From Carcharhinus amblyrhynchos (Eukaryota): a stretch of 64,000 bases of DNA. The notes under the pieces were generated by a model. The model saw nothing but the letters and a program-made list of their open reading frames with translations, made no database searches and was not told the DNA's origin. The position numbers were made by a program, and so were the translations under genes. The stretch spans positions 66,154,001 through 66,218,000 of the forward strand of contig OZ336885.1 of NCBI GenBank assembly GCA_965287045.1, in the 5' to 3' direction. Positions 6,637 to 63,154 of the stretch are shown piece after piece (position 1 is the first letter of the stretch; each line of letters starts with the position of its first letter).

Positions 6637-6972
6637 AGAACAAAAGAACAAAGAGCAACACAGCACGGGAAACAGGCCCTTCGACCCAACGAGCCCGCGC
6701 CGCCATCTTAAAGCATTTCCCTACACCTACCTCGACCTGTGTGTATGCCTATGGTACCCCCATTGGAAACCAGATTCAGGGGAGAATAAGTTAGGGACAA
6801 TTTGTTACACCAATCAGCCTAAGAGCACATTTTTGGGGTGTGGCAGGAAACCGGAGCACCCAGAGGAAACCCACGCAACCACAGGGAGAATGCGCAAATT
6901 CCCACAGACAATGGCCCAAATCCATGTATCTGCACAGCTAGCAGTGATAGTCACTGAGCTGTTGTGGTGCCC
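6637..6972 (-). mobile_element. HE1-like tRNA-derived SINE inserted in the Gypsy RT
   Basis: Contains GGAAACCGGAGCACCCAGAGGAAACCCACGCA..ACAGGGAGAATG (reverse of the SINE core) and a CR1-type tail ACAGGCCCTTCGACCCA. Confidence 0.75.
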
Positions 6973-7139
6973 ATCTGCTGGTCCAGTTTTAAGCACACAA
7001 AAGGACGCGAAGTACTAGGCCACTCTCGAAACATCCAAAAGCAGCCCACGCGCGACCCACCGCGTGCATGCCCCTCGTTAGACAACAAGGTGGACCGACA
7101 AACCTGCGGAGTAAAAGAGACAAAACATCAACACACGTA

Positions 7140-7435
7140 TCGTTAGATTCCCAGTAACGTCCGGAGGCTCTGACACTTTTAAAAACCGTCTCCTTGAACC
7201 CTCCACCCCTGTTTCACTCGTGTGCCTATCTAAGTAAACCTTAAACAAGTCCAGCGTGCCTGCCTCCTTCACCTTACTTGCTAGTTCATTCCATACTCCC
7301 ACGACCCTCGACGTGAAAAACCTTCCTCTAGTATCCAAATTATACTTCTCCCCCCTCACCCTTAGCTCGTGACCCCTCGTAATATTTGTCTCCAATCTAG
7401 GAAAAAGCCTGCCACTTTTTACTCTATCTATACCC
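7140..7435 (-). mobile_element. CR1 LINE 3' ORF2 fragment
   Basis: ORF 7078-7395 contains TRGHELRV..GRFFTSRVVGVWNEL, the CR1 ORF2 C-terminal motif. Confidence 0.85.
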
Positions 7436-7769
7436 TTATTGTTTTGTTTTGGAAAATATATTCCAAACTTGGCTTTGATATTAAAACCGCTGCATAATCT
7501 ACTTTGTGAGAATGATTTTTGTGATTGGACGACATTATATGAAAGTGTATGAGACGATTTAAGAGGTAATTTGAAGCATTCTGAATTACCAGTGTTTGTA
7601 CTCGAAATGTACCATTTTTGAGTGATTTCAAAATTACACTTTATAGATTAGGATTTGTTCTTGCACATACCATGCCTTCGGATGGTTAAAATCAATAGCA
7701 GTTGCTTCGTCTGTCCTGACTCCTGGTGAATCCACATTTGCACAGCCAGTAATTGTTTATGATTGAACG

Positions 7770-10340: not shown

Positions 10341-10376
10341 ATCTAGCAACAAACCAGGAAACTATAGATGACTTAG
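10341..10376 (+). CDS. Micro-exon 1, type A, 36 nt: (x)LATNQETIDDL
   Basis: gttttccctcaatttag|ATCTAGCAAC...GATGACTTAG|gtaggt; phase 1-1. Confidence 0.85.
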
Positions 10377-13300
10377 GTAGGTTTAATTATCGTTACCGTC
10401 AAAATCGTTCATGACTGTTAACATGGTTGATTCAAAATCTATTCTTTTTCTCTCTCTGCAATGTTTAGTAAAGAAGTGAAAGTATTACTTCTGGGTGTAC
10501 AGCAAATATATTGGCGTTGCTTGGCCAAAATATTGAATCGCAAAACTTCTGGCAATTTATTGGAAATGAAAATCAAGATGGTGTCACACATGGCAGCCAA
10601 CGTCTCACGAGAAACTCAGCGCTCTTTGAGAAATTGTGCCTGCACATTAGTACATTGCAGTTAATTATGTGAGCTTAACTGTCATGAACATTGAAAACCC
10701 AAATGGCAATTGAAACAGAACAAGAGCAGACGTGACTGTATCTGTTCAACTCAGTGCTAATTATATCGTTGACTAATGGCATGTAATGAATCTAGCCGAT
10801 CTGCGAGGTGAACCCAGAATAAATTCGTCTGGGGCACGACCATCACTATTCGTCTCCTATGAGAACCAAGTGAAATCATTGGATGGTCGTGGCTATGGCC
10901 GCGCATTGTCCATTGGGCAGTGGTTGCCTGGCAGTCCCCAAATGGAATGTTATGCGCCTCCACCTGTAAACTTAATAGAGCCGCTTGCGCACCGTGTGTA
11001 TGCCAAGTGCAGGGCCAAGGCTGCGTAGCTTGAGTGGTGTTGGTTGTTAAGTGCGGGCATGGCTAAGACAGAGGACAATACGATGATGTAGTGAGGGCGC
11101 CTGGTGGAACACTGCCTCGGGTCATGCAAAGGACAATGTTAGGGTGTTGTCATGGGTGATTATGCAAGCAGACGTGACGACATGTGAAAGCAAAGGTGCA
11201 GGGTGTGCCCTGTAGGGAGGTGGTAGGGCAGGAAGTAGGTCTGACTTGATGGCTGGAGGAGGGTCGGGGGCAGTTGGCGTGCGTGGAGGCGATGGAAGGG
11301 GAGGTGAGGAGTAGATGCACTGAAATGGCAGGCAGTGTTGGCTGTGTTGTGCCTTTGCCTCGCCCCAACTGCACACACATTCCAACTGTCAAAAAATGGC
11401 AGTGTTTGGGAAGATTGGGCTGGCGTGTTCGAAGAAAAAACCTCTGTGAAGCGTAATGATTTCCAGACGTTCCTGACAGCTAGATAGTCTAACCATAACT
11501 GCGGCAGTTTAAATACATTCAAGTACAACTCTAATAACATTCAAGAAACTTAATAGCATTAAGGAGCATGGAGCTTCCTTGACTACCAAATCATTCACCA
11601 CCTATATTTTGTACATCGCCAAATCCTCGCAACTGCAACAATTCCTCTCCAGCAAGACGGCATTAAATTGACAACAATATTCAGGGTCATAACCTACAAT
11701 TAAGTATAGGTCCAGGATCCACCTCTCAAGGGCACTAACAGTGTACGCACAATTCGTGAAACAATACTTTTCAAGATGACGGCTCATCGTTTCCCCAGCA
11801 ACCCCGTGAAATAACGTTGTTTTTAAAAACAAAAAAAACAAGCAATCGAGTAACATCGATGCTTACATCGGATTCTAACATAGACGAAGTTATGAAATCG
11901 ATAAGACGAAAACCCTAATGTTGAAAATCTAAAGTTGCATCAGTAAGTTTTACATCTAGCGTGAATCTCTTACCCTTCACCACCGCCCCTCGCCCGACGC
12001 CGCCACCACGAAATTCAGTTCGTTAACGTGTGCTGTTTGAATGAATGTTAGTACAGATTTGCTTTGTTTTTCGCTGAAACTCCATTCTTTCAAAAACAAG
12101 CCTCCACAACCTTCGACTCCAGCCTCAATCCCTCACAACCCCGAAGTAAATGGCAATTCCATTTGACCTATGTGTTCTCTAGACTGAAAGTACAGAGCTT
12201 GTTCTTCCTTCAATAAGTATTTTTCTGTTTGAACTATGTGTTTTCTCTGACGTTTCCCGGAACTCGTATTCATTGCTGTATGACAGTGGGAAATTATTCA
12301 GGCTTTTGACTGCTTGCCAGCTCTCTGTTAAATTTAAAGAGGTTATTTGTTAATGAGACTTGCGGGCGTATTTTGCACCTTGTACAAATCTTTATTGAAG
12401 ATTCCCGCAGGAAGTGTACACTTTGAAAACAAATGGCGAGGCTGGTCCTGAAATGCGCAACATTCCGATGTTGTGAATGATCAAGCTATGAGGACGCGTA
12501 GAGATTGGGGCACTGTCAAGGTTATATATAGGAAGCAAGAATGTTGCACGATACAATAATTTGGTCTACATATTGTAAATAGAGGGAAGAAATTAGCGTG
12601 AATCGTTCCACTTAGCGTCCACCTTTTTTTTCCGACTGATAACAAAGCACGTTCGGTTTCTGTCCTTAAGCTAACGTGTTATTCGTGTCTGAGTTGCATG
12701 CAACACATCAATGTTTGGCTTGCAAAGTATTTCGAGGTCAGCATTATGCAGTAACCAATAATGAATCGTTAGCCCATAAATGTTTGTTGCAACATGCTCA
12801 TGCCATGTACAACATGCAATAGCACTCGAAACCTGGATTCATAAATTTGAGTGTGGTTTATTCAAGTTATGGGCAGGCTAGAAATAAAGTAGTTCGCTCA
12901 GCATTTTGGAAGAATCGTGTGCATGCTGGACTGGACAATCACAACTATTGCCGTATTCTGAAAACTGCACCTAAGTACAACAACACAACTGAACAGTCTG
13001 AGATGACTTCGCAGATAGTTTCATGTATGGCAGCTTTGCACTCTCAAAGTTCCTCATTTGTTCCTGAACAGGGGATAAATTGAAATCGAAGAACGCAGGT
13101 AAGCATGTTTGTGTGTCACAGACTTTATCCAATAAACTTACCTTCAAAATGTAAATGTTTTCTTGGCAGAAATGTGATTCGAGGAGGAAATGTCATGAGA
13201 ACTGAGGCAGATTTAATGAACTAACCTGTTCTCCACTGGCAAAAAAAAACGAGCACACGGCGCGCGCTGACAAAATAATATTGGTAAAAGGCGGGGAAAC

Positions 13301-16300: not shown

Positions 16301-19300
16301 TGACAGAGAAATAGCAGAATCACTAGTAATAATTTACCAAATTCGCGGCACTCTGGGCTGGTTCCCACAGATTGAAAAACAGCACATGGGATGCCATAGT
16401 TTAAAGAATAAGATGAACAACAAGTGGATAACTAGATGCCAGTTAGCTTAACTTTGGTAATAGGGAAAATGCTTGAATATATATTATCAATGAAGAAATA
16501 GCGAGACATCTGGATATAAATTGGCGCAGCATGGGTTCCTGAAGGGCAGTTCAGGTTTGACTATATTGGTGGGATTCTTTGAGAACAATATACGCTGGAC
16601 AAAGGGGATGTGATGCATTTGCATTTTTAGAAGACATTTGACAAGGTGGTGCACCAAAGACTGTTGCATAAGATAATGGTGTACGGTGTGATGTGTAATG
16701 ATTAGCATAGTTGAAGGATTGGCTTCCTAACAGAAAGCAAAACATGGGAGTAAATGGGAGCTTTTTTTCTGATTGGCGATCAGTGGCTAATGGTGTGCCT
16801 CAGGCATCAGTGTTGGGACCGCAATTGTTGATGATATGCATCGATGAATTACAGTTGGGGACCAAGTGTAGTGTGCCAAAATTCGCAGATAACACTCAGA
16901 TGAGTGCAGAGCATGCTGAAAGTCTGAAAATGTATATCGGTAGTCTAAGTGAGTGGGCGAGGGTCTGGCAGGTGGAGTACAATGTTGGTAAATGTGAGGT
17001 TATCCATTCTGGTATGAATAACAGCAAAATAGACTATTATTTAAATGGTAAAATATTGCAGCATGCTGTTTTGCAGAAAGACCTGGGTGTCCGTGTGCAA
17101 GAATCACAATGAGTTCGTTTGCAGATCTAGCAGGTTATTAAGAAGGCAAATGGAATTTTGACTGTCATTGCACGAAGGATGGAGATCAAAAACAGCAAGG
17201 TTACGTTGCAGCTGTAAAGGTTGCTGGTCAGGCCTAATCTGGAGTGCTGTGAACAAAATTTGGTCTCCTTACTTGAGAAAGGATAGGCTGGCACTGGGGG
17301 TGGGGGTTGAGGGGGAGGGTGGTGTAGAGGAGATTCACTAGTTTGATTTCGGATTTGAGAAGTTTGGCTTATGAAGAGGGACAGAGTGGACTGTGGATAT
17401 ACTCATTGGAATACAGAAGAATGAGGCCAGATCTTATAGAAACATTTAAGATTATGAAGGAAATAGATACGATAGAAGCCGGGAAGTTGTTTCCTCCGGC
17501 GGATGAAACTAGAACTAGGGGGCATTGCCTCAAAATAAGATGGAGCAGATTTAGGACTGAGTTGAGGAGGAACTTCTTCACACAAAGGGTTGTGAATCTG
17601 TGGAATTCATTGCTCAGTGAAACATTTAAGGCTACCTTATTGAATTTTTTTTTAAGGCAAGGATAGATAAACTTTTGAACAGTAAAGTAATTAATAGTTA
17701 TGGTGTGTGGGCGGCTAAGTGCAGCTGAGTACACGAAAAGATCAGCCACGATGTTCTTGAATGGTGGAGCAGGCTCGAGGGGCCAGATGGCTTACTCCTG
17801 CTCCTCGTTCTTATGTTCTTGTATTCTTATTAGCAAGCATGCATACACACACAAAGTTTCTCTCTACCGCCAGCGCACACATGCTGACAGATATTTTTGA
17901 TGATTTACCGCTTTGAACATTTTTGTTCCAGACGTAGCTAAATATACAGAATTGTTGAAGGTGTTAGGTAAGATTTATTCAATCCCAATCTGATTTCATT
18001 CTATAACAATACATTCAGAAAAAAAGCACGGAAAATAAAATAGTACCTTACCCATGCACCACATTTTTTTTATTATCACGGAAGAAAAGCTGCCAGCCAT
18101 TTACACTCAGCCTATTTACGTTGACTGGAATTTGATTTCCATTCACCTTTACAGAAGATAAAGTGAAAGTGAAAACCAGTGGTAAGTTGTCTAATATTGA
18201 TTGAACAAAAATACTGTTCTATAGACCTTATTACCAAAGGATTTTCTCTCGCAATATTACAATGGTTCTGAGTTTCGCCTCATATGGGGTTCATACTTCT
18301 GATGCACTGCAGCAAAACAGGTTTCACATGGAGAAGTGTAATTTCGAGAATTACATATATTGGATTGATTTATTCCATCAACATCAACAACAATCACATT
18401 ATCTGCGCATATACCAATTGTGTCCGAGGAGCATCACTATTGAGAACTGTTTGTTTCATTGTTTAAAGTATATAATTCTGAATTGTAGTCATTAACTTTA
18501 AAGCACCTTTAGATTTAATGACAAGATGCATATGTACAGTATATTGAGGTGGACCTAAGTTAAGCTATGCCTTAACCAAGGAACATTCCCAACTTCCCTT
18601 TCCCTGGTTAGTGCATGAATCTCCACTTACCCGCTCGCTCACCACAACCCTTAATTAAATTACTGTTCAATAACTTAACTATCCTTGCCTTAAAAACATT
18701 CAATGAGGTAGCCTCACCTGTGTCACTGGGCGGGGAATTCCACAGCTTCACCAACCTTTGTTTCAAGAAGTTCCTCCCCAATTCAGTCCTGCATCAGCTC
18801 CCCCTTATTTCGAGACCATGCCTCCTAGTTCTAGATTCACCCGCCAGTGGAAGCAACTTCCCTGTTTCTATCGTATCTATTCCCTTCCGATGTTCTTTCA
18901 GTGCATCTGACAATGAACGATGAATTAGTTTTGCAGACGCGAGAACACCATTGATACTTTAACATCAGTTGTGGAAAAGAAAATCAGCTGTTTACATTTT
19001 CCACAAAATGTTCCACAAATTTGCCGTAATTGTGACTTCCCCCTCAAAGATAAAAGATGAACAAAAACTGATACTTCATGAAAATATTAGAGCATAGTAA
19101 ACAATTACGGTTTGTAGGCAAGGCATAGAAAATTTGTACAAATGATTTTTGTTGTTTTTCCGTTAACACCCTTCCCACGCCTAAACGACAAAAAGCATCA
19201 GTGCAATGCGTCAATTGTTTGTTGATTGGTATGCGATTCTAATCCCCTAACAATGCAATTTTGTAGAAAGTTTCAAAATTTTAATATAAACTTCAACAAA

Positions 19301-52300: not shown

Positions 52301-55300
52301 TCAATACGTCGGAGCCATGACTCAGGATGAGCTGAGCGAAAAACTTTCAAGTGATACGTATAGAAAAAAAAAGAACTACTCAGGCAATGACGAATGCCAA
52401 ATAATTATATACTTCGCCAGTAACTAGCAAATTTCAATAACTTATGGGGAAAACTGGGTCAGAATAATTATAACGTCCCGTGTTGTATTGCGTTTACACC
52501 ACAATAGCTCTCATTCTCTATTTTCTTGCAGAAAATGAACTCAATCAAAAAGCTGCTGGTAAAATGTATATTTATCTTCACATACATTTTTCGCATTGGT
52601 TGAGAACTCTCTGGTCCAGTCCTTCGTGATTGCACCAAAAGTGTTTTAATCAAGTGTGTGCGCTGACGTAGATGTAGCCGCCTGATCGGAATGACAAGAT
52701 GCTGGTTCCTCCTTCATAAGAACATAAGAAATAGGAGCAGGAGTAGGCCATCTAGCCCTTCGAACCTGCCCCGCCATTGAATAAGATCATTGCTGAACTG
52801 AAGTGGATCAGCTCCCCTTTCCCTCTTTCTCCCCATGACCCTTAATTCCCTTGTCTATCAGAAATCTATCTAACCGTGACTTAAATATATTCAACAAGGC
52901 AACCTCCACCACTTCAATGTGCAGAGAATTCCAGAGATTCACCACTCTTTGAGTGAAGAAATTCCTCCTCAACTGCGTTCTAAACTGCGCCCCCCTCCCC
53001 CTCCCCTCTTATTTTGAGGATGTGCCCTCTATTTCTGTTTTCCTTTCTAAACCGGAAGAATCTCTCTACCTCAACTCTATCTAGCCCCTTCATTATTTTA
53101 TAAGTCTCTATAAGATCCCCACTCAGCCTTCTAAACTCTAACGAGCACAGGCCCAGTATATTCAATCTCTGTTCATAAGCTAACCCCCTTATCTCCGGTA
53201 TTAGCCTGGTGAACCTTCTATGTACTCCATCCAAGGACAATATATCCTTTCGCAAATACGGGGACAAGAATTGCTCACAGTACTCCGGTTGCGGCCTCTC
53301 CAGTGCTCTGCACTTCTGCAGCAAGACCTCCCTGTTTTTATATTCTATGCCCCTCGCTATAAAGGCCAACATTCTATTCGCCTTCTTGATCACCTGCTGC
53401 ACCTGCAGACTGAGATTTTGCAATTCGTGCACAAGGGCCCCCAAGTCCCTCTGCACTGTAGCATGCTGCAGCTTTTTCAATCTTTAAATAATAATCCCTC
53501 CTACTATTCTTTCTACCAAAATGGATAACCTTACATGTGCTAATGTTATACTCCATCTGCCAGGTCCTCACTCACTCACTATCGAGATCTCTCTGCAGAC
53601 TTTCTGTGCCCTCCACACAATTCGCTTTTTCACTCATCTTTGTGTCATCAGCAAATATTGTTACCCTACACTCAGCCCCCTCCTCAAGATCGTCTATGTA
53701 AATGGCAAACAGTTGAGGCCCCAGCACCGATCCCTGTGGCACTCCACTAGTCACCAACTGCCAACCAGAAAAGCACCCATTGATTCCAACTCTCTGCTTC
53801 CTGTTAGATAACCAATCCTCAATGCAGGCTCACACTTTATCCCCAACTCCATGTACCCGAACCTTCTGCAGCAACCTTTTGTGAGGCACCTTATCGAACG
53901 CCTTCTGGAAATCTAAAAACAGCACATCCACCGGTTCTCCTCTATCTACCGCACTAGTCGCATTTTCATAGAAATCCAATAAATTCGTTAAACACGACTT
54001 TCCCTTCACAAATTCATGCTGTGTCTAGTTGACCAAACCGTTCTTTTCTAGGTGTCTTGCTATTCCTTCTTTGATGATGGATTCTAGCATTTTCCCAACC
54101 ATGGACTTTAACCTAACTGGCCTATAATTCCCTGCCTTTTGTCTGCTACCTTTTTTTAAACAGCGGCGTAACATTTGCAATTTTCCAATCCTCCTGCAAC
54201 TTGGGTGCCGGACGAGATTCAGGTGGAGTATTACTGCAAGTAAATTTCGGAGCCATGACAAGGGATGAGACATGACTTGTCTTCCCACAGCAGCAACCTG
54301 TGTGCAATCTGCTTTCGGCCTGCCATAGTTAGCAGTTAAGGGGGGATGCACCACGGTCAAATATTTGTCATCTCACATGAAAACAATTCACAGCGCGCAT
54401 CATTTTTCATCTCTTATTACTGTTATTTACCACACTATTACAATTAATAGCAATATGATTTGTTCAATTTTTATTCCGATTACAGCTAGTCATGCAACAT
54501 CACTAAAACGGAATTTCCAGAATATAATTAACAACAAGTCACCGGAGCATGTGGCAAGCAAAATATTTGCTTTATTTCCAACACGACAAGAATAATTAAA
54601 CGTCGCATTGTGGCCGAAATGCTTTGGAGTTTTGAAATCCTCGAATTGGTTGAATGATTACTGACTTTTACCGTCAAATTTAAGTTGGAAGTATCAAAAT
54701 TGATGGTACTGAGCAGCACTGTCGTTTCAAATCACGATGTGGCTCAAGGAGAATTCAAATGAAATGGGATGGGAGAAACGTATTTTTCCGTATGTTTTGT
54801 TTCAGAAATAGAACAGCTGAATAATAAATTGAATGAATTCGGTAAGCAAGATATCCAATGCTGTTCTACCCCAATTTGCTGTTACGATACCCTGAGTAAC
54901 AGATTTAAAAAACATTCGTAATCGTCAGTGACCCAATTTAGATGAACTTGGCGTTGTTAAATGTGGCATTGAACCTTAATTACTGCAATAAATTTGAAAT
55001 ACATTTTCCACTTGATATGATTATTGGAGTGGGGATTTTTGAGATGTATAAAATGGTCAGGGATATGAAATGATTCGGTTTGACCGTTTATTTGAGAGAA
55101 TGTAGAGCTAGCGTCACTGTTGAAAATTAACAACGTGTCCATTTAAGACAGTGGCTCAATTTGCAATGAGCCTTTGCATCTCTCTCCCTGAAAAACAAAA
55201 ACCGTCGAAGCACAGTATTTGGCTACTTTGGATGCAGAAATTGACTTTTTTTGGCTCGGTTTGGAATATGGACTTGAATTTCCGATTAGCGCAGACTTAT

Positions 55301-57574
55301 TATTGAAAAGCGAAGCAGGCTCCAGGGGCCGAGTAGAAAATGCATATTTGTACGCACCTTTTTATGTGCATTTAAACAAAATAGACACCACTAAAATTCA
55401 GCGCACTGATTTGTCTGCAGTAAGTTTGATCTTCCGTATTTTCAAATGTTCCCTAAAGTAGCACTGTAAGTTGCGAATTGGTTTTATAAGGTGTAATAAG
55501 CCATTGAAACGCAAGTGCACATCCCCTCTCCCTTACAAAAAATACATGCCACCTCGAAAACTAAGAGATATGGAATAATGTGGACGCATTTAAATCTGCT
55601 ACATTTCATATTCAAGCTCGTGTTGCAATCAAACGGACAGTTGTATTGAACTTATCCATGGAAGGAAGAGTAATTGTATTGTCTCTTAGGAATAATGCAT
55701 TTTTCGCCAATGACATCTATGTCTGAAGAAACACCTCTCAGTATAAGTTGCGACTGCAGTGTTGTAAACCAACAACCATCAAAGAGAATTGCTTTGGTAA
55801 ATTTAAATCGTGATCAATGCAGCGGACCGATACTATGGAAATAAATGATTTACATGTTCTTTGAAAAGTATCATATTTTTGTCATTGGCAGTCAAAACAA
55901 TGAAGGGTAAGTCAGTGTCTGCTGCGACAACTAATATTCTGATCTGTAGAAAACACACTGACATTTTCATTGATCTTCTCGTTAATATCACGTTAAATTT
56001 GTAATTCTTGCCATACAAATCGATTGCGTTTATGTACTGCTGTCACGGCATTTAAACCTGAATCCCCGAGGAAACTCTGTTCGTCAAACTGTTATTTTAA
56101 TCGCAAAACTCATTCATCACAGAAGTTACAGTGAGCTTTAAACTGCTCAAAATATAAACGGTGGAATGGTTTCAATAAAACTATTCGTTCTTTTATGACT
56201 TTCCAAATACATTTCCAAAACACACATTTTTCTTGAAAATTTTGATTCTCTGCCCTTATGCCTCAGAATGTTTAATTGGCTAATCGGTGCTGTGAGCAGC
56301 CTTAGGAGGATGTATTATGTTAATATTCGTGCGCAATTGCAAACACTGTTTTACTTTACACCAAAGACGCACAGCAGTACTGTATAATCCACAGACTGCT
56401 GGTTGGAAGACCAAGATGCGCTGTTACTCGAAATTTCTCTCAATTTAGTCTAAGGTGCGACCTCACATAACACCGAAAAGGAAAATACAGGGAATATGCA
56501 CGAAATAAGCAACATTCTAATCGCGATATCTCCAAAATTGGTTTCCTGATTTTCGTTTAGAGAGTGGGAATTGCTGGTAAGCCAGCATTTCCCCTTGATT
56601 CCTCATTAACCTTGAGAACGTCCTGGTGAACAAATATCAAAAGTCGTGTATTTTACGTCTGCAAGTGAATACGCGGTGCTGATAGAGAAATATGTCTGCG
56701 TTTCTGACCTAATCACCGTGCAACAGTAGCAAGCCATTAATAATGAGTGGTTTGAATTACAACATTATCCCGACGGCCCTATATTTACGAGCGGCTGGTC
56801 TTTTCACAAAGAGGGAGACGCACCAGTGGGTCAATCTGAACGTTTGCAATGCAATACAGAAATACATCTTCCATTTAGGACGCAGTCCTTAGACGTCGTT
56901 TACCTATCAATAATGCTCTGATCTTCTGCTAAGCTCATATGCATCGACTAATGAGGTGGAACTCCAGTGCATATGTCTGTTGTCCACCTTCACTCTATGC
57001 GTAAATCGCCCTTGTTTCGAAGGTGACGTTTTGCACATTGCTGGATTTCGTTAACAGGATTGTACAGGCTTTTATCACAGTCCAACGCTGATGAAACATT
57101 CGAATTTTGAGCTGATAGTTGTGATATCAGTAAGACGCCTTGCCCGGAATACTATGATACAGTGATTCTGAGACTGGATCTTTCAGGCAAGTGGAATATA
57201 TTTCATGCTACTCCTGACCGATATTCGCCATATGATGGACAGGCTCTTAGATGTCAGAACGTGCAATACTTGCAAGTGAGATCACAAATCAATACGTCTG
57301 ACTGGAGATGCACGCTTCCGAATTGTAATTTGGAACTTACCTCGAATTCGCACGATGATTTTACTCATTTGAGCATCAGGGCAAATGCAAGAATGCAACC
57401 TTTCAAAGGGAGTAGCGTTAGACGCTGCTTGATTGCAAGTTTCATGGCTCTTGGTAAGCAGACTCTGATGGAATGAGGTGTTGAAATGAATAGCATCCAA
57501 GAAAAAAAACCCTCCTCGAATTTCGTCAATATGATTACCCCCACCCCCACCGACCCCCCACCCCCACCCCACCC

Positions 57575-57607
<33 letters not shown>

Positions 57608-60600
57608 ACCACCTACACTCTCTGACAAACTCGGAGAGAAACTTATGGTTGTTTATATTTAAGTGTGTAATGCCGGCTTCTTAATGAAATTCATATCAGG
57701 GCATGGGCTGTTCAAGTGCGTGTTCTCCAATCGTGGCGTTGCATTCTGTGTTCCCTCAGGTGGCTTTATAGGTTGTTTGAGAACAACCAGGCGATTAGCA
57801 AAGAGATAAGTTGAATCGTACTATACGACAAGTGTTGCAGCATATGTCCGAGGAATGTTAAATACCACCAATGTTTAAATTATAAATTACAGCAATGATA
57901 CCTGTGGTCGGCAGAAGGCCTCCGTGGCTTGTCCGCAGCATCCTTGTTATTCATCTTAGTACCATATGCCAGATGGGTGAAATATGGAACGACACTATCA
58001 TCAGAATGACTAGCTAGATGGATTTTCTGAGCACTGATGCAGCATTTATTTTCCAGCCCAAACATGCTGAACTAAATGACGACCACATCCTGAATTTTTG
58101 TTTTGTGACGGTTGCCCGCATCGACATTAGCATACTTTTAGATTCTGCAGAGTCATTCACTGATGGATTTTTTAAATTGCATTTTAGTTCTAAGCGACTG
58201 CCCAAAATCGCTGAAGGACTTAGGTAAGGCAGATTTTCCGTATGCCTACCTACTCTTTGTAGCGCATTGCATTATTTGTTTCATTTTATTTTGTTAATTG
58301 TATTCAAAGCTGTTTCAATTAATTTGTAACTGCAACAACGTCCAGTGTTAAGGTATGTCAGGCTGCCCGCGAAGCTAAGGCTGGCACTATCGTTTTCTCA
58401 AAGCGCCAGTGCCCAGTTTCGAATACCGGCTTGGGTCACTGTCTGCACGGTTTTTACAGGGTCGCTCCGTGTTCGTCAACTATGTGTGCTCTCCTTTCCT
58501 GCCACAGTCCGAAAGATGCGCTTCTCAAGTTCATTGGCCATGCTAAATTTTCCCTCTCTCTATCTAATTAGGCGTCCAACTGTGGTAACTGGGGGATTGT
58601 CAGCGTAACTGAATTATCTTATACTATTTTGGGACATGAACAAGTGAAATAAACCTTCAGATAAAGAGTCATAATGTGATGGAAATAGAAGGGAATGCAT
58701 TCATGATTGTATAACAATTAATTGACTATGCTCATTTTTTCATGACAACTTTGACGTCCATCGAATACCGTGGGCAGCAGATTTTTCTAATGGCAAAAGG
58801 GCAGAATTCTCATTTATGATGTTTGTTGTAGGGAAGGCATTCCGTTCCGCCAGTGACTTCAGTATAATACTTTGGTGTGGAATTTTATGGCCAAATTGTC
58901 CTGAAGCATACATTTTACAGCAATATTGAAGACAAATTTTCAGGCCTTTATTTGCCAGAAGTTATGTTTGTCAACCTAATTGTCATTTGTGAATGTATGT
59001 TACACGGTTTACTTTCGTTGATACATCCTTTAAGTAACTGGTTGCACTCAAGTTATGCAACCATCTTGAACACAAAGAACGTGAAGAAATTCGTAACATC
59101 CCTACTCTTCGAGCTACTTTTAATAACTTTGCATTTGATGGTTTCCCGATTCACAACAGAAGCAAAACAGAAGTCAAAAGAAAATGGTTAACACTTACTG
59201 AAAATAAACTTATACTTATGTCCTTGCTAGAATCGTTAATTTTCGTCACTGTGCAAAGATTCTTCACAAATTAGTGGTATAAATCATGACTGGAATTAGG
59301 AAAGGTTCTACGAAATGGAGTTATTCAATAAAGCTAGAAGGGAGGTTTTTTTGTACTTTGAAAATTCGAGAATGATTGATATGAAGATAAGATATTCGTC
59401 GACAAATACAATGATCGTTCCATACAAAATGTCTCGACGTGGCTTATTGGCAACTCGGTCTTCGAGACAATAGTGAATATTTTGTTTTGGTGGAGCAAAT
59501 GTGATTTTGAGATGTTAAATGTATGCATTGACGAAAATACTGCGGAAGATTCTAATGACAGGTTGAAGCAAAATCGGGATGGGAAGCTGTTTTTGTGTGT
59601 TCAGCAGTGCTGCTGTTAATTTGTGTCATATGTTCAGATGTTTGCCTCCCATTCGCTTCACTACATTATTGAGATTACAGTGTCATTTATTGCAAGAAAT
59701 GCCCAAATTGGATCATGACAACTTTAACCATTCCTTGTTTTGAAGAGAAAAGGGGGAAAAAAACACATAGGACATAATGTATGGACAGCAGGATGATGCT
59801 ACTTTAGATGCGATCCAAGTTAGTCTGAAGGTTATTATTCACACGTAAAAAAAATACATTGATATTCTAGGAAAATAGACATGAAAGATAATTTCGGCAC
59901 AGCTTTTCTCTGCACAGTGTGAATGGTGTGGAAAATTGGATTTGGAACCAAAAACAGTTTGTGAGTTCCGAATAAAATGCGTGTACTGAATTCCAAAACC
60001 AACATGAATGCAACCGAATTCCTCCCTTGCAAGCAACAGACACGAGATACGAATAAGTTTTTTTTCCGTCACCCGGCATATCAGAGTTCAACTCCATAAT
60101 AAACCTGCTTCCATTCAGTTATATAATGTTCCATTTATTAAATTTTGTGTTATTGCTCAAAGACCGGATTTTAAAAAAATCATAACATTTATAATGCTTT
60201 GCCAGAAAGCAGTCAGCGACTGGAAACCGTGGAAGGTTAGATTTGTTCAGACGACCAGTAACTATGTGAAGCAGTTAGGTTTTACATATTGTCTTAAAGG
60301 AGGAAATCAAAATGGAAAAATGTAAAGTGCAGCCGTAGACGTATAGAGGGTTTTGTCAACTACGGTGGGGGAAATATAAATGACAATGCAAATTATGCCG
60401 TAGCTCGATAGTAAAAATGTTTGGGATGGTTGGGTACAAAAAGGTTACGAAAATGATCAATGGAAACGCTAGGGAACAATTTTGCAAACAGCGTGGGAGT
60501 TTTAAAATCAATATGTTGCATCAATGGAGCCAATACATACCAGCGTGTACAAGGGAGATTTCCAATATAATTGTTTCTAAGTGGGAACTCACGTGTAAGC

Positions 60601-63154
60601 TGACGACCATTTGCTCACGCTTTTGGGGAAAAGAGAGGCTGCGGAAAGTGTGACGCATCGCAGTAAATTGGGTCCCTATCACTTGAGAAGATAATTAATG
60701 GCAGCAGATTTAACGCAGAGAGGAGAATTACACAAGAAATGAATTGTTACAATATTGGCTACATTGGGGTAATAAGAAATATTGGGTGACATATTGTTTA
60801 TTTTGAGAAACAGCAAGGGAAAGTGATAACTTCCGAATGAAAAGATGTGCTCGGAGTGAGCTTGAACATCTGTTGATGCGAAATTAGAACTATAAAAAGA
60901 GTTCAGGAATAGGGCAAAAAAAAACATATAATGGAAAAAGGATCGTTGGAACACAGGTAGGGCGATAAGATTGCCCTACTCACCGTGGAAAAGTAATAAT
61001 TTAACAGCTCAACTAATTAAATAGTGCCTCTATGAATTCTGCACTTATGCAATAGGAGCAGTAGAAGGTAATTTATTTGTTTCAATCTATGTCTCCACTA
61101 AATCAGTTCTTCACTGATCTGTTTGTGTTTTGCTCCACCTTTCAGATGCAAGTGGGACAACCTTTGATTCCCTAGCCCCATAGCAATGTTTTTTTTTTAA
61201 TTTCAGCCTTTAAAAGATACTCTAATATCCCATGTGTCCATTCACGAGCAGGTTGTTCCGAAGACCTAAACCCTCTGACAGAAAAGTATGTTTTTCTCTG
61301 TTTTAAACTTGTTTATTTTAACGTGGCGTTTTGGCCCTTCAACACAAAAATCATATTAAGCTCTCATTATAAGGTCACGATTGCCTAACGTATACATGGC
61401 GTGAAGGATGGTTACAAAATAGAAACTACATGTGCCAAATTAATCCCGTTCCCTAACAACGGTCTGGGTCTACATTTGCAAGAAGTGTTTCTGAATCTTC
61501 CGTTGCTGTCAGTGAAAAAACAATCAAATGTTGTTCCAATACTTTGCTTTCTGGAGACTTGCAAGTGTTAATTTTCTTAACATTAGGTTCTCTTGAACAT
61601 GTTAATACATTCAGCTCTTCGAATTTGATGACCTGTAAGAGAAGTACAGTATGCAATCAATGACTGGATTAATACGCAATTGTAAATTTTATGTGTGGTT
61701 AAAAATTCATTTGTTGCACACTGAACATGTCCGTGGAGAAACATGCGCCTTCGAGGAAAAACAAGTGCGCGAGTAACGAAATGCATTTGAGGCGCTTCCA
61801 ATCAATGATGAGTATCACTTAAACTTCAGTAATTCAATGCTAAAGCAACAAACGTAACATGCTCATGAAAATGAAAATTCCAAAACATCAAAAGAGAAGG
61901 TTTTTTTTGAAAAAACATATCGATATGGCTAGTTGAAACCAGTCGTAGGATTGCTGGAGAGTTTAAAATGCAAGTTTTCGAGCGGGATGGGATGGCGATT
62001 AGTTCCCGTGTCCTTTAATGTATTTAAACGAAATACACAATCCTATGTGGTATTAATGCAAACAGAGCGAACCATGTAACGTACTTAAACATTAGTAATT
62101 AATGCTACAAGTATGCTTTCATCTTTACTGCAATTATTTAACTGTTAAAAAATCCTAGTCGCTAGCTTCGACATCTTGTTGGATACATTGAGGGATAATT
62201 TACCATGGCAACGCAGTTAACAAGTACGTGTTTCGGGCTGTGGGAAGAAACCAGTGTTTCCGGCCGAAAACCATGCAGACACCGGGAGAATGTGCACAAT
62301 GCACAATGATAGTTATCAAAACCGGGAATCAAATCCGCCTCCGTGGCGTTGTGATGTACTGTGCCACAGTGTCGCCAGATGGCCAGAAATGAGTGTTTAT
62401 GAATGCCCTTTCCAAGAAGCCATTTGCCAGCAACCATCTCAGCAATGACTGGACTCACAGTGCCCAATTTTGTAATCCTAAATCTGACAATGTTGGCACA
62501 CAATATACATTACAATCATGTATTCAATTAACAACAAAACTAACTTTGAAAATTTCTCCCCCTCAACTGAAAGAGTCAGGTAAATATCTTTATCAGATCC
62601 GCTTTAGCTCAGTCTGTAACACGTTTAATGCGAGTCTTAATTTTTGAGTGTCAAATGTCGCTCAAACCTAAACCAATATATTGAAGCTGGCACTGCAATT
62701 GCCAAAGTTGGGAGAGTGTAGACGTTGCGCAGATGTTATTATTACAATGAAATAATAAACTAAGGTTATATAGGGCCAAATTTAAGAATTGGGGCAGCAG
62801 CGTGTGCGACATAAAAACGAAAGACCAGCGCCTCATTTCGAAATTAGGTTTTGCTTTGAACTGTAGTTTGCTGGCGCAAGCAGGACATTAGTCAGTTCAT
62901 TATACCACAAAAAGTTCACTACTGGATGTAAATTATATTGAAAAGCTCTGATTCGCGAAATATATTTAAAATTACAAAACCCTTTCACCGGCAAGTTTGT
63001 GAATGTTAAGGGAAAGTTCCGTCGGGCTGTGGGCCAGCAGTAGCGAAATTGTAAGTAACAAAAAAAATAGGAAAATGCATTGGCAATTATTGACCACATG
63101 TTTTGCGGTGATTTTCAGAAATAAAAACCCTCAAGGTTACAGTTCATGAATACG
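10341..63154 (+). CDS. Partial multi-micro-exon gene (23 exons, 708 nt, ~236 aa) encoding a long heptad-repeat coiled coil; both ends outside the window
   Basis: Spliced translation: xLATNQETIDDL GDKLKSKNA DVAKYTELLKVL EDKVKVKTS DLTKCQDTLEDL EEKLKKKGK EEKRLFEYANEL EGKLKAKGQ ELMKFQDDLEDS EDKLKEKEK EIGVYQKALTEA EKNLKEKNK DFAKLQHDFDNL VAKYNAKEK ELFACTSLLEDA ERKVKSVQK ENEKYQEKC QNELNQKAA EIEQLNNKLNEF VKTMK VLSDCPKSLKDL EAKQKSKEN EIKTLKVTVHEY. No stops; all junctions phase 1; hydrophobic residues mostly at positions 2, 5, 9, 12 and 16 of each 21-aa unit. Confidence 0.88.
13072..13098 (+). CDS. Micro-exon 2, type B, 27 nt: (G)DKLKSKNA
   Basis: tcctcatttgttcctgaacag|GGGATAAATTGAAATCGAAGAACGCAG|gtaagc. 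Confidence 0.88.
13693..13815. mobile_element. Short MITE-like element with ~26-bp imperfect terminal inverted repeats
   Basis: Left end GCCAGAGATTTACCGCCTCGTCTGCC versus reverse complement of right end GCAGGAATTTTACCACCTCTCCTGCC (~19/26 match). Confidence 0.55.
14490..15730. repeat. CA-rich low-complexity region (decayed ACAC/GCAC microsatellite field)
   Basis: Dense acacac/gcacac/acagac motifs with a pure (CA)n at ~15427-15444; resumes briefly after the CR1 at ~17835-17890. Confidence 0.75.
15735..17830 (+). mobile_element. 5'-truncated CR1 LINE (ORF2 RT to 3' tail), multiple stops and frameshifts
   Basis: SPGPNGMHPRLLK; GVPQASVLGPQL; KFADNT; WQVEYNVGKCEVIH; TRGHCLKI..RRNFFTQRVVNLWNSL; tail TTCTTATGTTCTT. 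Confidence 0.92.
17932..17967 (+). CDS. Micro-exon 3, type A, 36 nt: (D)VAKYTELLKVL
   Basis: ttttgttccag|ACGTAGCTAA...AGGTGTTAG|gtaaga. Confidence 0.88.
18155..18181 (+). CDS. Micro-exon 4, type B, 27 nt: (E)DKVKVKTS
   Basis: ttccattcacctttacag|AAGATAAAGTGAAAGTGAAAACCAGTG|gtaagt. Confidence 0.88.
18590..18890 (-). mobile_element. CR1 3' fragment
   Basis: GAATTCCACAGCTTCACCAACCTTTG..AAGAAGTTCCTCC..CTAGTTCTAGATTCACCCGCCAGTGGAAGC is the reverse of the CR1 ORF2 end. Confidence 0.8.
19910..19945 (+). CDS. Micro-exon 5, type A, 36 nt: (D)LTKCQDTLEDL
   Basis: ttcttctaaatttcag|ATTTAACAAA...GAAGATCTAG|gttggg. Confidence 0.87.
20522..20548 (+). CDS. Micro-exon 6, type B, 27 nt: (E)EKLKKKGK
   Basis: gcttacaacag|AGGAAAAGCTGAAAAAAAAAGGGAAAG|gtattt. 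Confidence 0.87.
21466..21501 (+). CDS. Micro-exon 7, type A, 36 nt: (E)EKRLFEYANEL
   Basis: ttttgtctgttacag|AAGAGAAAAG...AACGAATTAG|gtgagg. Confidence 0.86.
   Translation, partial: KRKGCSNTQTN
22545..22815 (-). mobile_element. HE1-like SINE
   Basis: TCTTTGGACTGTGGGAGGAAACTGAAGCACCGGGAGGAAACCCACGCAGAC..CTCCACACAGACAGTGACCCA. Confidence 0.8.
23190..23715 (+). repeat. Degenerate direct repeat: two ~105-bp copies about 420 bp apart
   Basis: GATATCCGGACGGATTACATGGAGAAAGAGG..TCTCCCCAAAAACATGCCATTAACATATC (~23190-23293) versus AATATCCGAACAGATTTACAGGGGAGATGGAGG..TCTCCCCAACAACCTGCCATTAACATATC (~23608-23712). Confidence 0.6.
24224..25143 (+). mobile_element. Solo LTR (~920 bp)
   Basis: Termini TGTGGTAAAC...GTTTCACACA (8/10 inverted match); TATA-like TAGTATAAAG ~25001; AATAAA ~25075; target-site duplication imperfect, so the end is uncertain by ~2 bp. 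Confidence 0.65.
25709..25735 (+). CDS. Micro-exon 8, type B, 27 nt: (E)GKLKAKGQ
   Basis: attattttcaacag|AAGGAAAACTGAAAGCAAAAGGTCAAG|gtaact. Confidence 0.88.
26560..28455 (+). mobile_element. Old, highly decayed CR1 ORF2 fragment
   Basis: Remnants of RT motifs (KLAYDT ~27580); C-terminal GHKSLK..VIGIWNSL ~28180-28270; tail CTCATTCTGTGCTG. Confidence 0.65.
29075..32700 (-). mobile_element. Cluster of nested CR1 fragments: two 3' ends, RT C-terminus, endonuclease and ORF1 esterase remnants
   Basis: ORF 29894-30295 (MHFGRTN..LGRPNLEYCVHFWSP..ERVQRGF); ORF 30908-31144 (ITETCL..QGCSAFRKDR; APE endonuclease); ORF 32016-32198 (PVVVFHVVTNDI; SGNH-like ORF1). Confidence 0.85.
31392..31735 (+). mobile_element. 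HE1-like SINE inserted in CR1
   Basis: GGGCGGCGCAGTGGCACAGCGGTTA..GCCTCACAGCG..TTCAATTCC (tRNA A/B-box-like head); CTGTCTGTGTGGAGTTTGCA; tail ATGGCCTCCTTCTGCACTGT. Confidence 0.85.
32850..33760 (-). mobile_element. Old CR1 3' fragment
   Basis: GGTAGTGAATTTCACAAATTCATC..GAAGGAAATTCTT..AACTGCACGCAGTACTGGAGGTG (reverse of the EYCVQF region). Confidence 0.65.
33860..33895 (+). CDS. Micro-exon 9, type A, 36 nt: (E)LMKFQDDLEDS
   Basis: atacttttgcttgccag|AGCTGATGAA...GAAGACTCAG|gtgaga. Confidence 0.88.
34898..34936. repeat. (TG)n microsatellite
   Basis: Near-perfect TG run with one CG interruption. Confidence 0.9.
35543..35569 (+). CDS. Micro-exon 10, type B, 27 nt: (E)DKLKEKEK
   Basis: aattctctcctgagcag|AGGACAAACTGAAGGAAAAAGAGAAAG|gtacat. 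Confidence 0.87.
36336..36680 (+). mobile_element. HE1-like SINE
   Basis: GGCACAGTGGTTAGCACCGCTGCCTCACAG..CTCGATTCCCGGCCTG..TCCCACTGTCCAAAAAAGTGCAGGTTAGG. Confidence 0.85.
37080..37420 (-). mobile_element. HE1-like SINE
   Basis: GCATGGCCAATCCACC..GAGGAAACCACAGCACCCAGAGGAAACC..CTGGCTGTGAGGCAGTAGTGCTA. Confidence 0.7.
38266..38560 (+). mobile_element. HE1-like SINE
   Basis: GGGTGACACGGTGGCAAAGTG..GGGTCTCAATCCCGGCTTTG..GCATTGGTCATGCTAAATTATCTCCCAGTGTAGCCGAATAGGCGCC. Confidence 0.7.
39596..39631 (+). CDS. Micro-exon 11, type A, 36 nt: (E)IGVYQKALTEA
   Basis: tttcattttcctgcattgtag|AGATAGGTGT...ACTGAGGCAG|gtgagt. Confidence 0.87.
40562..40588 (+). CDS. Micro-exon 12, type B, 27 nt: (E)KNLKEKNK
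   Basis: tctgtttttacctcatggtag|AGAAAAATCTCAAAGAAAAAAATAAAG|gtatct. Confidence 0.86.
41918..42725. mobile_element. SINE 3' half (minus strand, ~41918-42120) adjacent to an old CR1 3' fragment (plus strand, ~42120-42725)
   Basis: CATAGAAACCCTACAGTGCGGAAAGAGGCC..GGACACTAAGGGGCGATTTAGCATGGCCAATC; then ELYRTFVRSYLEH..YLKKDV (CR1). Confidence 0.7.
42780..42815 (+). CDS. Micro-exon 13, type A, 36 nt: (D)FAKLQHDFDNL
   Basis: ttgttatctgtattacag|ATTTTGCGAA...GACAATTTAG|gtcaga. Confidence 0.86.
   Translation: MLRNFNMILTI
42875..43215 (+). mobile_element. Decayed HE1-like SINE containing a C-run
   Basis: GCACGATGGCA..GTCTTGGGTGATTGCCTGTCTCGAGTTTGCACTCTCCC..ATGCTCTTTCGGA. Confidence 0.6.
43531..44168 (+). 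mobile_element. Solo LTR, 638 bp, with perfect 4-bp target-site duplication
   Basis: CCAG|TGTTA...TAACA|CCAG (TSD at 43527-43530 and 44169-44172); TATA-like GGTATAACT ~44009 suggests plus orientation. Confidence 0.85.
44325..44351 (+). CDS. Micro-exon 14, type B, 27 nt: (V)AKYNAKEK
   Basis: ccatttactcttacccag|TTGCCAAATACAACGCAAAAGAGAAAG|gtaagc. Confidence 0.87.
45340..45895 (-). mobile_element. CR1 3' fragment
   Basis: ORFs 45424-45720 (MRGYLI..LFPKVESSLTRGHRFK..LWNSLP) and 45717-45938 (IRPHLHYNVQFWLPH..ALERVQKIFTR). Confidence 0.88.
46170..47400 (-). mobile_element. Old non-LTR retrotransposon fragment (CR1/L2 clade)
   Basis: Begins GTCACTGGCTTGGCCA..CTAATTGTCCTT, resembling a common chondrichthyan LINE 3' end also seen at ~56570; too decayed to translate. 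Confidence 0.45.
47452..47487 (+). CDS. Micro-exon 15, type A, 36 nt: (E)LFACTSLLEDA
   Basis: cttgttcggtttcag|AACTATTTGC...GAGGATGCAG|gtgaat. Confidence 0.85.
47987..48013 (+). CDS. Micro-exon 16, type B, 27 nt: (E)RKVKSVQK
   Basis: ctgtttctttattcacacaattacag|AAAGAAAAGTAAAGTCAGTGCAGAAAG|gtgatg. Confidence 0.83.
48354..48380 (+). CDS. Micro-exon 17, shortened type A, 27 nt: (E)NEKYQEKC
   Basis: T-rich tract ...ttttcacag|AAAATGAAAAATATCAAGAAAAGTGCC|gtaagt; KYQ matches type-A positions 4-6. Confidence 0.8.
48700..49250 (+). mobile_element. CR1 3' fragment with tail
   Basis: KIQRKFTRMIPGM..SYEERLRSLGL..GLDRVDVEK; tail TCTGCTCCTATGTCTTATGCTCTTATG. Confidence 0.9.
51935..52095 (-). mobile_element. 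SINE fragment
   Basis: CTTTCGGACTGTGGGAGGAAAC..GGAGGAAACCCATGCAGAGATGGGGAGAACGT. Confidence 0.75.
52532..52558 (+). CDS. Micro-exon 18, type B, 27 nt: (Q)NELNQKAA
   Basis: cattctctattttcttgcag|AAAATGAACTCAATCAAAAAGCTGCTG|gtaaaa. Confidence 0.83.
52715..54190 (-). mobile_element. Relatively young 5'-truncated CR1 LINE (RT domain to 3' tail)
   Basis: GNYRPVRL; VTSGVPQGSVLGPQLFAIYIDDL..IFADDTK; WQMEYN; KKANRMLAFIARGIEYK; tail CATAAGAACATAAGAAATAGGAGCAGGAG at ~52715. Confidence 0.93.
54806..54841 (+). CDS. Micro-exon 19, type A, 36 nt: (E)IEQLNNKLNEF
   Basis: tatgttttgtttcag|AAATAGAACA...AATGAATTCG|gtaagc. Confidence 0.88.
55892..55906 (+). CDS. Micro-exon 20, shortened type B, 15 nt: (V)KTMK
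   Basis: catatttttgtcattggcag|TCAAAACAATGAAGG|gtaagt; best-supported phase 1-1 candidate found between A exons 19 and 21. Confidence 0.68.
57538..57612. repeat. Poly-C / (CCCCCA)n tract followed by a (CA)n microsatellite
   Basis: Seen directly in the sequence. Confidence 0.85.
58188..58223 (+). CDS. Micro-exon 21, type A, 36 nt: (V)LSDCPKSLKDL
   Basis: tttaaattgcattttag|TTCTAAGCGA...AAGGACTTAG|gtaagg. Confidence 0.85.
58370..58610 (+). mobile_element. Decayed HE1-like SINE
   Basis: TTCGAATACCGGCTTGGGTCACTGTCTG..CACAGTCCGAAAGATG..CATTGGCCATGCTAAATT. Confidence 0.7.
59160..59186 (+). CDS. Micro-exon 22, type B, 27 nt: (E)AKQKSKEN
   Basis: gtttcccgattcacaacag|AAGCAAAACAGAAGTCAAAAGAAAATG|gttaac. 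Confidence 0.8.
60100..60960 (-). mobile_element. Old L2-type LINE 3' fragment
   Basis: GTTAGGTTTTACATATTGTCTTAAAGGAGG resembles the reverse of the shark L2 3' region; very decayed. Confidence 0.45.
62130..62376 (-). mobile_element. HE1-like SINE
   Basis: GGGCTGTGGGAAGAAACCAG..AAAACCATGCAGACACCGGGAGAATGTGCA..CCGGGAATCAAATCCG. Confidence 0.75.
63119..63154 (+). CDS. Micro-exon 23, type A, 36 nt: (E)IKTLKVTVHEY
   Basis: ttttgcggtgattttcag|AAATAAAAAC...CATGAATACG|gtaagc; exon ends and donor resemble exon 19. Confidence 0.85.

Follow-up and report, generated by a model that had tools for sequence, protein, structure and literature searches.

TRIM proteins with a B30.2 domain (TRIM58, TRIM7, TRIM21, TRIM39) carry it together with a coiled coil and with an N-terminal RING and B-box; their coils run antiparallel and come from larger exons. 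Enterophilins, which are mammalian and lack Ig domains, join a long heptad or leucine-zipper region to a B30.2 domain, with a rod far shorter than the one described below, and vespryns such as ohanin, with a B30.2 domain behind a signal peptide, are secreted and provide a precedent. For an enterophilin, a role in SNX1/EGFR trafficking has been described (PMC13749957). Butyrophilins (BTN/BTNL, ERMAP) have Ig V and C2 domains, a transmembrane region and few heptads, and the heptad region is followed by a terminal B30.2 domain (PMC4046983; PMC8813856). Chicken BG genes have an Ig V domain, a transmembrane exon, a variable number (13-36) of tiny, alternatively spliced exons of 21 or 24 nt that encode a long coiled-coil tail, and a 3'UTR exon, with no B30.2 domain (PMC4046983).

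The locus studied here lies on C16 (contig OZ336885.1) of the 2.92-Gb genome of Carcharhinus amblyrhynchos. The window, the whole 64,000-nucleotide stretch that was analysed, is C16:66,154,001-66,218,000. Its micro-exons belong to an array that ends, as in butyrophilins, in a B30.2 exon, so that the BG and butyrophilin tails to which a sequence-only reading of the window had pointed proved a sound lead; CD23, the other system it had named, has like other type II C-type lectins a C-terminal C-type lectin domain, whereas the terminal exon here is B30.2. Butyrophilins have few heptads, but this gene has about 230 heptad-equivalents, in a 36+27-nt unit; butyrophilin-type Ig V or C2 domains were not found on C16, and the two B30.2 domains belong to separate clades and differ at the histidines of the BTN3A1 pocket, which are Ser here. 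Chicken BG likewise has a long tail of tiny exons, but here at least 157 exons of 36 or 27 nt extend over hundreds of kb and a B30.2 domain is present, with five BG-sized 21-nt exons in the 5' zone. TRIMs provide the best solved-structure matches, but their RING and B-box are absent from the relatives of this gene, the rod here is made of micro-exons, and TRIM coils misfit its exon profiles. Enterophilins may be likened to it by layout, and vespryns, which have no rod, by their B30.2 domain, secretion here being putative. The design of the gene is related to, yet distinct from, that of the butyrophilin and chicken BG immune genes; since the test for Ig domains failed for these two and the relatives are without RING and B-box, we assign it to neither of them, nor to the TRIMs.

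Micro-exons of the window

Exons were called with a position model trained on the flanks only, with the window held out, at a threshold giving about 2 minus-strand matches per length in 864 kb. Between 10341 and 63154 the model recovered 21 G-ending phase-1 exons, 11 of 36 nt (A exons) and 10 of 27 nt (B exons), with introns of 187 to 8124 nt between them (Table 1). A scan for AG-N36-GT and AG-N27-GT also found the plus-strand segments where the sequence-only reading had placed them, and the intron range it gave, 187 bp to ~8.1 kb, agrees with that measured. When the less certain segments at 48354 and 55892 are included, the set comes to 23 segments, 708 nt and 236 codons with zero stops, or 1.34% of the span, and since these totals equal the earlier ones (236 aa, ~1.3% coding), we infer that this was the original set. 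As counted earlier, 9 of the 10 B exons have Lys at their seventh position. Alternation of 36 and 27 nt, which had been called strict throughout, is so only in the first 16 exons (10341-48013), because the segments at 48354 and 55892 are needed to make up that set; 3' of the B exon at 47987 the order is a 27-nt non-B segment, B, A, a 15-nt segment, A, B, A, and it is irregular over the larger array as well. A 52-nt plus-strand segment with a good donor lies at 8723-8774, downstream of the B exon at 4390 and upstream of the A exon at 10341; it was left out because its length would shift the frame, and may be chance, a degenerate exon or a poison exon.

The window exons are real and coding. At a generic splice score of at least 4, the plus strand of the window contained 7 segments of 27 nt and 10 of 36 nt and the minus strand 0 of either length, and in the same scan the other 47 lengths from 12 to 60 nt gave a mean of 0.66 and a maximum of 3. 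For a test blind to exon content, 91 plus-strand candidates of 27 or 36 nt were selected in 737 kb on splice signals alone; only 4 of them had a stop in the phase-1 frame, compared with 59 and 48 in the other two frames and with 16/40 and 16/36 in the control sets. The hydrophobic residues of the first 16 exons recur with a period of 3.5, which none of 2000 shuffles equalled, in keeping with the heptad repeat originally noticed, and none of the 24 window segments overlapped DNA repeated in 400 kb of flank. Throughout the array the exons share one orientation and one phase, and the B30.2 frame at its 3' end is intact. The earlier proposal that a coding gene of micro-exons lies hidden here, that it is chondrichthyan and that its rod is built of modular heptads is supported.

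Interspersed repeats occupy introns at 15759-17830, 52712-54198, 6633-7437 and 29511-30309 of the window, several with reverse-transcriptase-like frames by eye, and they may be CR1/LINE elements; matches to 400 kb of flank cover 14.6% of the window. Retrovirus-like gag/protease/envelope-type frames were also seen by eye in introns at -57,400 to -55,000 (plus strand) and 102,471-103,898 (minus strand). Reads from four runs on the last 10 kb, with joints shown at repeats, cover introns as well as exons, and the runs therefore behave as DNA of related organisms.

Table 1. Exons of the window, landmarks of the array on C16, and database relatives
Feature	Position or accession	Strand	Basis
27-nt B exon, upstream of the range first reported	4390..4416	+	held-out position model, score 20.5
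36-nt A exon	10341..10376	+	held-out position model
27-nt B exon	13072..13098	+	held-out position model
36-nt A exon	17932..17967	+	held-out position model, score 14.6, near threshold
27-nt B exon	18155..18181	+	held-out position model
36-nt A exon	19910..19945	+	held-out position model
27-nt B exon	20522..20548	+	held-out position model
36-nt A exon	21466..21501	+	held-out position model
27-nt B exon	25709..25735	+	held-out position model
36-nt A exon	33860..33895	+	held-out position model
27-nt B exon	35543..35569	+	held-out position model
36-nt A exon	39596..39631	+	held-out position model
27-nt B exon	40562..40588	+	held-out position model
36-nt A exon	42780..42815	+	held-out position model
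27-nt B exon	44325..44351	+	held-out position model
36-nt A exon	47452..47487	+	held-out position model
27-nt B exon, final one of the strictly alternating run	47987..48013	+	held-out position model
27-nt in-frame candidate, C-ending, non-B, interrupts alternation, less certain	48354..48380	+	held-out position model
27-nt B exon	52532..52558	+	held-out position model
36-nt A exon	54806..54841	+	held-out position model
15-nt in-frame candidate between two A exons, less certain	55892..55906	+	splice-site scan
36-nt A exon	58188..58223	+	held-out position model
27-nt B exon	59160..59186	+	held-out position model
36-nt A exon	63119..63154	+	held-out position model
36/27-nt array, upstream limit	-474,827 window-relative	+	scan
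36/27-nt array, downstream limit	+275,732 window-relative; weaker call +281,465	+	position model
21-nt exons, sparser 5' zone	C16:65,533,063, 65,536,326, 65,545,896, 65,635,604, 65,652,872	+	scan
36-nt candidates, 5' zone	C16:65,542,675, 65,547,697	+	scan
Terminal B30.2 exon, 171 codons	+282,397 to +282,911 window-relative; C16:66,436,397-66,436,911	+	Pfam SPRY, structure matches
RefSeq relatives, Leucoraja	XP_055510696		same B30.2 clade
RefSeq relatives, Scyliorhinus	XP_038668997, XP_038672306-10		same B30.2 clade
RefSeq relatives, Narcine	XP_069775384-90		same B30.2 clade
RefSeq relatives, Callorhinchus	XP_042191566-8, XP_042192744		same B30.2 clade

Extent of the array

We consider it rather probable that a single giant gene, at least 730 kb long and probably more than 900 kb, extends through the whole window, which would be an internal part of it. 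The DNA covered was C16 65.600-66.558 Mb as a whole, 65.522-65.552 Mb, and four 4-kb samples. In all, 173 segments passed the model; 4 had a stop and 14 were not G-ending (two in both sets), leaving 157 exons, of which 65 measure 36 nt and 92 measure 27 nt; they lie between -451.6 and +281.5 kb relative to the window and together make 4,824 nt and 1,607 aa, or 0.66% of the 733-kb span. The joined frame is stop-free partly by construction, because stop-bearing segments were dropped; a few false members are expected in this set, and other exons will have been missed. The positions 10341 and 63154, previously put forward as the limits of a 53-kb gene with a rod of ~236 aa, are therefore too narrow, the array extending on both sides of them and the rod reaching at least 1,600 aa. 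Alternation is seen in 112 of the 156 adjacent pairs (0 of 10,000 permutations equalled it); the remaining pairs are B-B (35) or A-A (9), and missed exons may explain some of them.

The make-up of the array changes along its length, from a zone of 21-nt exons to an A/B/C zone and to strict A/B zones. The 21-nt, single-heptad exons of the 5' zone lie on the plus strand and begin with Asp or Glu followed by a hydrophobic residue; 4 were found in 99 kb of this zone, compared with 2 in 1,728 kb of background, and a further 10 kb of the zone yielded a fifth as well as two 36-nt candidates. The most 5' exon found is at C16:65,533,063 (-621 kb relative to the window), 904 kb from the stop codon, and the zone includes a stretch of ~35 kb in which no exon was detected. 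We infer that the 5'-zone exons belong to the same transcript as the array, and the sequence likewise suggests a single transcript over the array as a whole.

Ten of the 92 27-nt exons are of a third type, with Leu at position 2, in which the heptad register moves by two residues. From -205,000 to -160,000, relative to the window, a unit of ~10 kb is present in three to four copies of 85-93% identity that contain duplicated exons; such internal duplications are, judging from their sequence, a direct trace of array growth. On the minus strand at C16:65,400,510 there is a strong 30-nt phase-1 candidate with an A-like start, which may belong to a head-to-head paralogue ending at 63.74 Mb or be chance.

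The array might instead be a tandem cluster of shorter rod genes or transcription units, only the last of which has a B30.2 exon, those upstream being rod-only like BG tails. This we regard as improbable, though it should be taken seriously, given that most database models are short, that exon make-up varies along the array and that the ~10-kb segmental duplications lie inside it. The exons, however, are all of internal type and share strand and phase, their spacing within the 157-exon part has a median of 3.4 kb and a largest gap of 23 kb, no second terminal domain exon was seen in 864 kb, and SPRY forms of 1,277-1,802 aa exist as database clusters, which provide a lead only.

The terminal B30.2 exon and its relatives

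A phase-1 acceptor (score 6.9) precedes the B30.2 exon, whose stop is at +282,909, and no array exon beyond it passes the position model. Pfam SPRY matched it with an E value of 2e-12, and the PRY half appears divergent, since Pfam PRY gave no score. In comparisons with the PDB the sequence matched TRIM58 and BTN3A at E values of about 1e-16 to 1e-15 (BTN3A1/A3 ~1e-15) and was about equally close to TRIM58, TRIM7, TRIM21 and BTN3A; the predicted fold, from a structure model that was good in 1 of 5 runs (pLDDT 74), had the B30.2 domains of TRIM7 and BTN3A1 as its top structural matches. The two BTN3A1 histidines that we take to form the phosphoantigen pocket align with Ser here, so that phosphoantigen sensing is unlikely, and the head is likely, from its sequence, to be a binding module. 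Neither a second B30.2 or other terminal domain exon nor a RING motif was present in the 864 kb scanned, and the 150 matches listed, out of 328 candidates, include no other B30.2 from 63.74 to 66.44 Mb of C16.

The gene family that had been envisaged is borne out, with at least seven members of the same B30.2 clade in this genome, this locus included (150 matches listed of 328 candidates), and relatives in other chondrichthyans. Six paralogous B30.2 exons with open frames and 38-58% identity are found at 60.45, 61.08, 63.07, 63.15 and 63.74 Mb of C16 and at 106.38 Mb of C9, and below them, among the matches listed, comes a large TRIM/butyrophilin set at ~30% identity. In the nearest paralogue, too, the B30.2 exon is preceded by a 36-nt exon, homologous to those here. 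In a FastTree tree of 32 domains, arbitrarily rooted, the chondrichthyan B30.2 clade has a support of 1.0 and a long stem and stands apart from the butyrophilins and TRIMs of sharks and bony fish; a divergent C9 domain (103.95 Mb) joins it on a long branch. Large TRIM and butyrophilin clusters are located, among the matches listed, at 95-112 Mb of C9 and on C53, C46, C41 and C73, and the position of the C9 clade member inside the C9 cluster hints that the family originated there and then expanded on C16. Between clade domains and others (14 and 18, not independent) sequons do not separate, at 1.2 versus 1.4, and cysteines number 0.7 versus 2.1.

The closest database proteins come from skate, electric ray, catshark and chimaera (Table 1), and within this genome the skate protein matches this locus best, at 49%. 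Their RefSeq names (TRIM39-like, TRIM69-like, zinc-binding protein A33-like, nuclear-pore anchor-like) are automatic and misleading, since by Pfam the gene models of six relatives consist of a rod and SPRY, with one weak PRY match and without Ig, RING, B-box or TRIM_CC. The rods of four relatives fit the A/B profiles, with z of 7.2 for skate, 13.1 and 7.3 for chimaera, 6.4 for ray and 3.2 for catshark, compared with 1.7, 0.2 and -0.2 for three control coils outside the clade. Five of the six models are only 230-460 aa long and perhaps partial, suggesting that short transcripts from internal starts may dominate, and the chimaera model of 1,697 aa shows that long forms exist in annotation. RefSeq isoforms of this kind ordinarily rest on RNA reads, and those of the catshark, chimaera and ray relatives differ by exact internal blocks of 9 aa, and also of 6 and 7 aa.

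A search with a single B30.2 query found no longer forms, but it was limited to word-sharing proteins and is uninformative on absence; under the same limit an alignment query gave 3 matches among 8000 scored, and the skate protein matched only its own cluster. The catshark protein gave no convincing rod exon on 13 kb of its likely C9 orthologue. The chordate protein clusters of 1,277-1,802 aa have SPRY, no Ig family, automatic names and many isoforms, and could represent either this family or a parallel bony-fish one. As to the suggestion that the family is undescribed, no description of it was found in the open-licence PMC and bioRxiv literature, although RefSeq already has automatic models of relatives; the available portion of a butyrophilin phylogenomic study that includes four chondrichthyans shows no such gene (PMC12841164).

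These comparisons also bear on what kind of protein the gene encodes. It could be a divergent butyrophilin or BG-type membrane receptor, with the micro-exons as its cytoplasmic tail and with a signal peptide, an Ig V domain and a transmembrane exon encoded further upstream. The layout, heptad micro-exons of phase 1 ahead of a lone B30.2 exon, is that of butyrophilins, the 5' zone is enriched in BG-sized exons, BG tails use 13-36 such exons (PMC4046983), and the 5' end was not found in the DNA covered. We nevertheless judge it unlikely, because the butyrophilin C2 family search (56 matches, 87/87 candidates scored) and the shark butyrophilin V search (37 matches, 108/108 candidates scored) returned none on C16 while recovering the true butyrophilin clusters on C53, C46 and C9, the six relatives' models have no Ig domain, and the B30.2 clade is apart from shark butyrophilins. 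A general V-set search, in which the best 150 of 1793 candidates were scored and antigen-receptor genes dominated, was uninformative. Lower still we place a cytosolic factor of TRIM type, divergent or without RING, whose expanded TRIM coil would carry a B30.2 domain that senses a viral or cellular target. The B30.2 domain is about as near to three TRIMs as to BTN3A, databases call its relatives TRIM-like and one clade member sits inside the C9 TRIM/butyrophilin cluster, but the relatives are without RING or B-box, no RING was found on C16 among 150 of 456 candidates scored, TRIM coils misfit the A/B profiles, and the rod here has a parallel g-e' pattern (below). That the exons are chance splice-like sites or a decayed pseudogene, as the few stop-bearing and non-G-ending segments among the 173 might suggest, is very improbable in view of the stop-frame test, the strand and length controls, the intact B30.2 frame and the conservation of the unit in four other chondrichthyans.

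The rod, its compartment and its possible function

From the pattern of the sequence, a 36-nt exon provides two of the core pairs in a unit and a 27-nt exon the remaining one, and A+B thus makes three heptads. Across 56 A-B units the a positions (2, 9, 16) are Leu-rich, with a hydrophobic fraction of 0.84-0.86, and the d residues are Leu/Cys (5), Leu/Ala (12) and Lys (19), d5 being hydrophobic in a fraction of 0.89, d12 hydrophobic in 0.64 and d19 basic in 0.59. The acidic residue at g1 (0.86), typically Glu, pairs with a basic e6 (0.52), typically Lys, and Lys at g15 (basic 0.50) pairs with Glu at e20 (acidic 0.39). Under established coiled-coil rules complementary g-e' charges indicate a parallel coil, and the rod is thus probably parallel. 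The conserved Lys of the B exons would be a core d residue and likely sets register or oligomer state. Of 36 rod cysteines, 26 are at the three d positions of the 21-residue unit, and at 0.1485 nm per residue 157 exons give a rod of ~240 nm. Long stretches of the chimaera rod show weak heptad periodicity (2-6 of 100 shuffles equal it); the single-sequence fold of the skate protein has helices over residues 3-105 at low confidence (mean pLDDT 45), and a homodimer prediction for the skate rod (score 0.05, mark 0.32) is neutral on pairing.

A giant micro-exon gene for a parallel rod with B30.2 heads and a length tunable by splicing is the reading we favour, and we hold it to be fairly probable. 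Symmetric phase-1 micro-exons would encode a coiled-coil rod ending in a B30.2 domain of the chondrichthyan subfamily, and rods would pair in parallel through Leu at a, Leu, Cys, Ala and Lys at d and the g-e' charges. The rod would then act as a spacer, ~240 nm long or longer, keeping clustered B30.2 heads far from the N-terminus, and, if butyrophilin and TRIM biology is a guide, clustered heads could gain avidity from weak ligand binding. Since each exon is a multiple of 3 and of one phase, skipping or duplication keeps the frame, and might tune rod length and introduce hinges; the evidence for skipping consists of the database isoforms of relatives. Gain or loss of a whole A+B pair would preserve the heptad, and a single 9-residue exon would shift the register by two. 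Two-residue insertions in heptads give beta-layers in trimeric coils, according to one study (PMC4786415), and an extra 9-residue exon might thus form a beta-layer, were the coil trimeric, or a simple hinge. The gene would in effect act as the intracellular half of a butyrophilin with a greatly lengthened BG-type tail, free of Ig domains.

A short hydrophobic leader, like that of the skate and chimaera models, most likely stands at the N-terminus. Such a leader, of ~14 residues, is present in these two of the six relatives' models, where hydropathy over 8 residues reaches 3.50 and 3.25, compared with at most 2.04 in the other four genes; similarity between the two is weak (4/16 identical, shuffle p 0.01), and neither has a match in 958 kb of this locus. 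A leader-like frame at C16:65,656,342 was rejected because five minus-strand rows score alike. No transmembrane exon was found in the 5'-zone DNA examined, no 19-residue hydropathy window in the six relatives exceeds 1.59, and N-glycosylation sequons are not enriched in the rod (5 versus 6.9 in shuffled sequence). The d-position cysteines and the leader in two relatives count for export or anchoring, and the four leaderless models, the unenriched sequons and the failure to find the leader here count against. The protein may tentatively be placed outside the cell, as a secreted product, or with equal weight in the cytosol as a soluble one; N-terminal anchoring, with the rod in the cytosol, is possible at somewhat lower weight, a divergent Ig-bearing receptor is unlikely, and any other arrangement is most unlikely.

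Export or anchoring would allow a bolder reading, which we think possible but doubtful, of a chondrichthyan-wide family of secreted or N-terminally anchored filaments with a leader, disulfide staples at the d cysteines, a B30.2 head and a length set by splicing. Such a filament would be a parallel rod of 250-300 nm encoded by ~200 symmetric micro-exons over close to 1 Mb, an Ig-less offshoot of MHC-linked B30.2 genes used outside the cell, and might serve as an innate recognition molecule or as a structural fibre of a secretion.

With respect to the favoured reading of a giant micro-exon gene, the locus represents a class that annotation handles poorly, with less than one-hundredth of 733 kb coding and with relatives whose database models are mostly short and named as TRIM ligases though they have no RING. 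It offers a clean test case for symmetric exon duplication in evolution and for splicing fidelity across more than 150 consecutive micro-exons. One gene here unites halves that are otherwise split between the butyrophilins, with their B30.2 domain, and chicken BG, with its long micro-exon tail. Whether orphan B30.2 domains bind BG tails is a question posed in a review (PMC8813856), and a natural fusion of B30.2 and a BG-type tail in the oldest jawed-vertebrate lineage bears on it.
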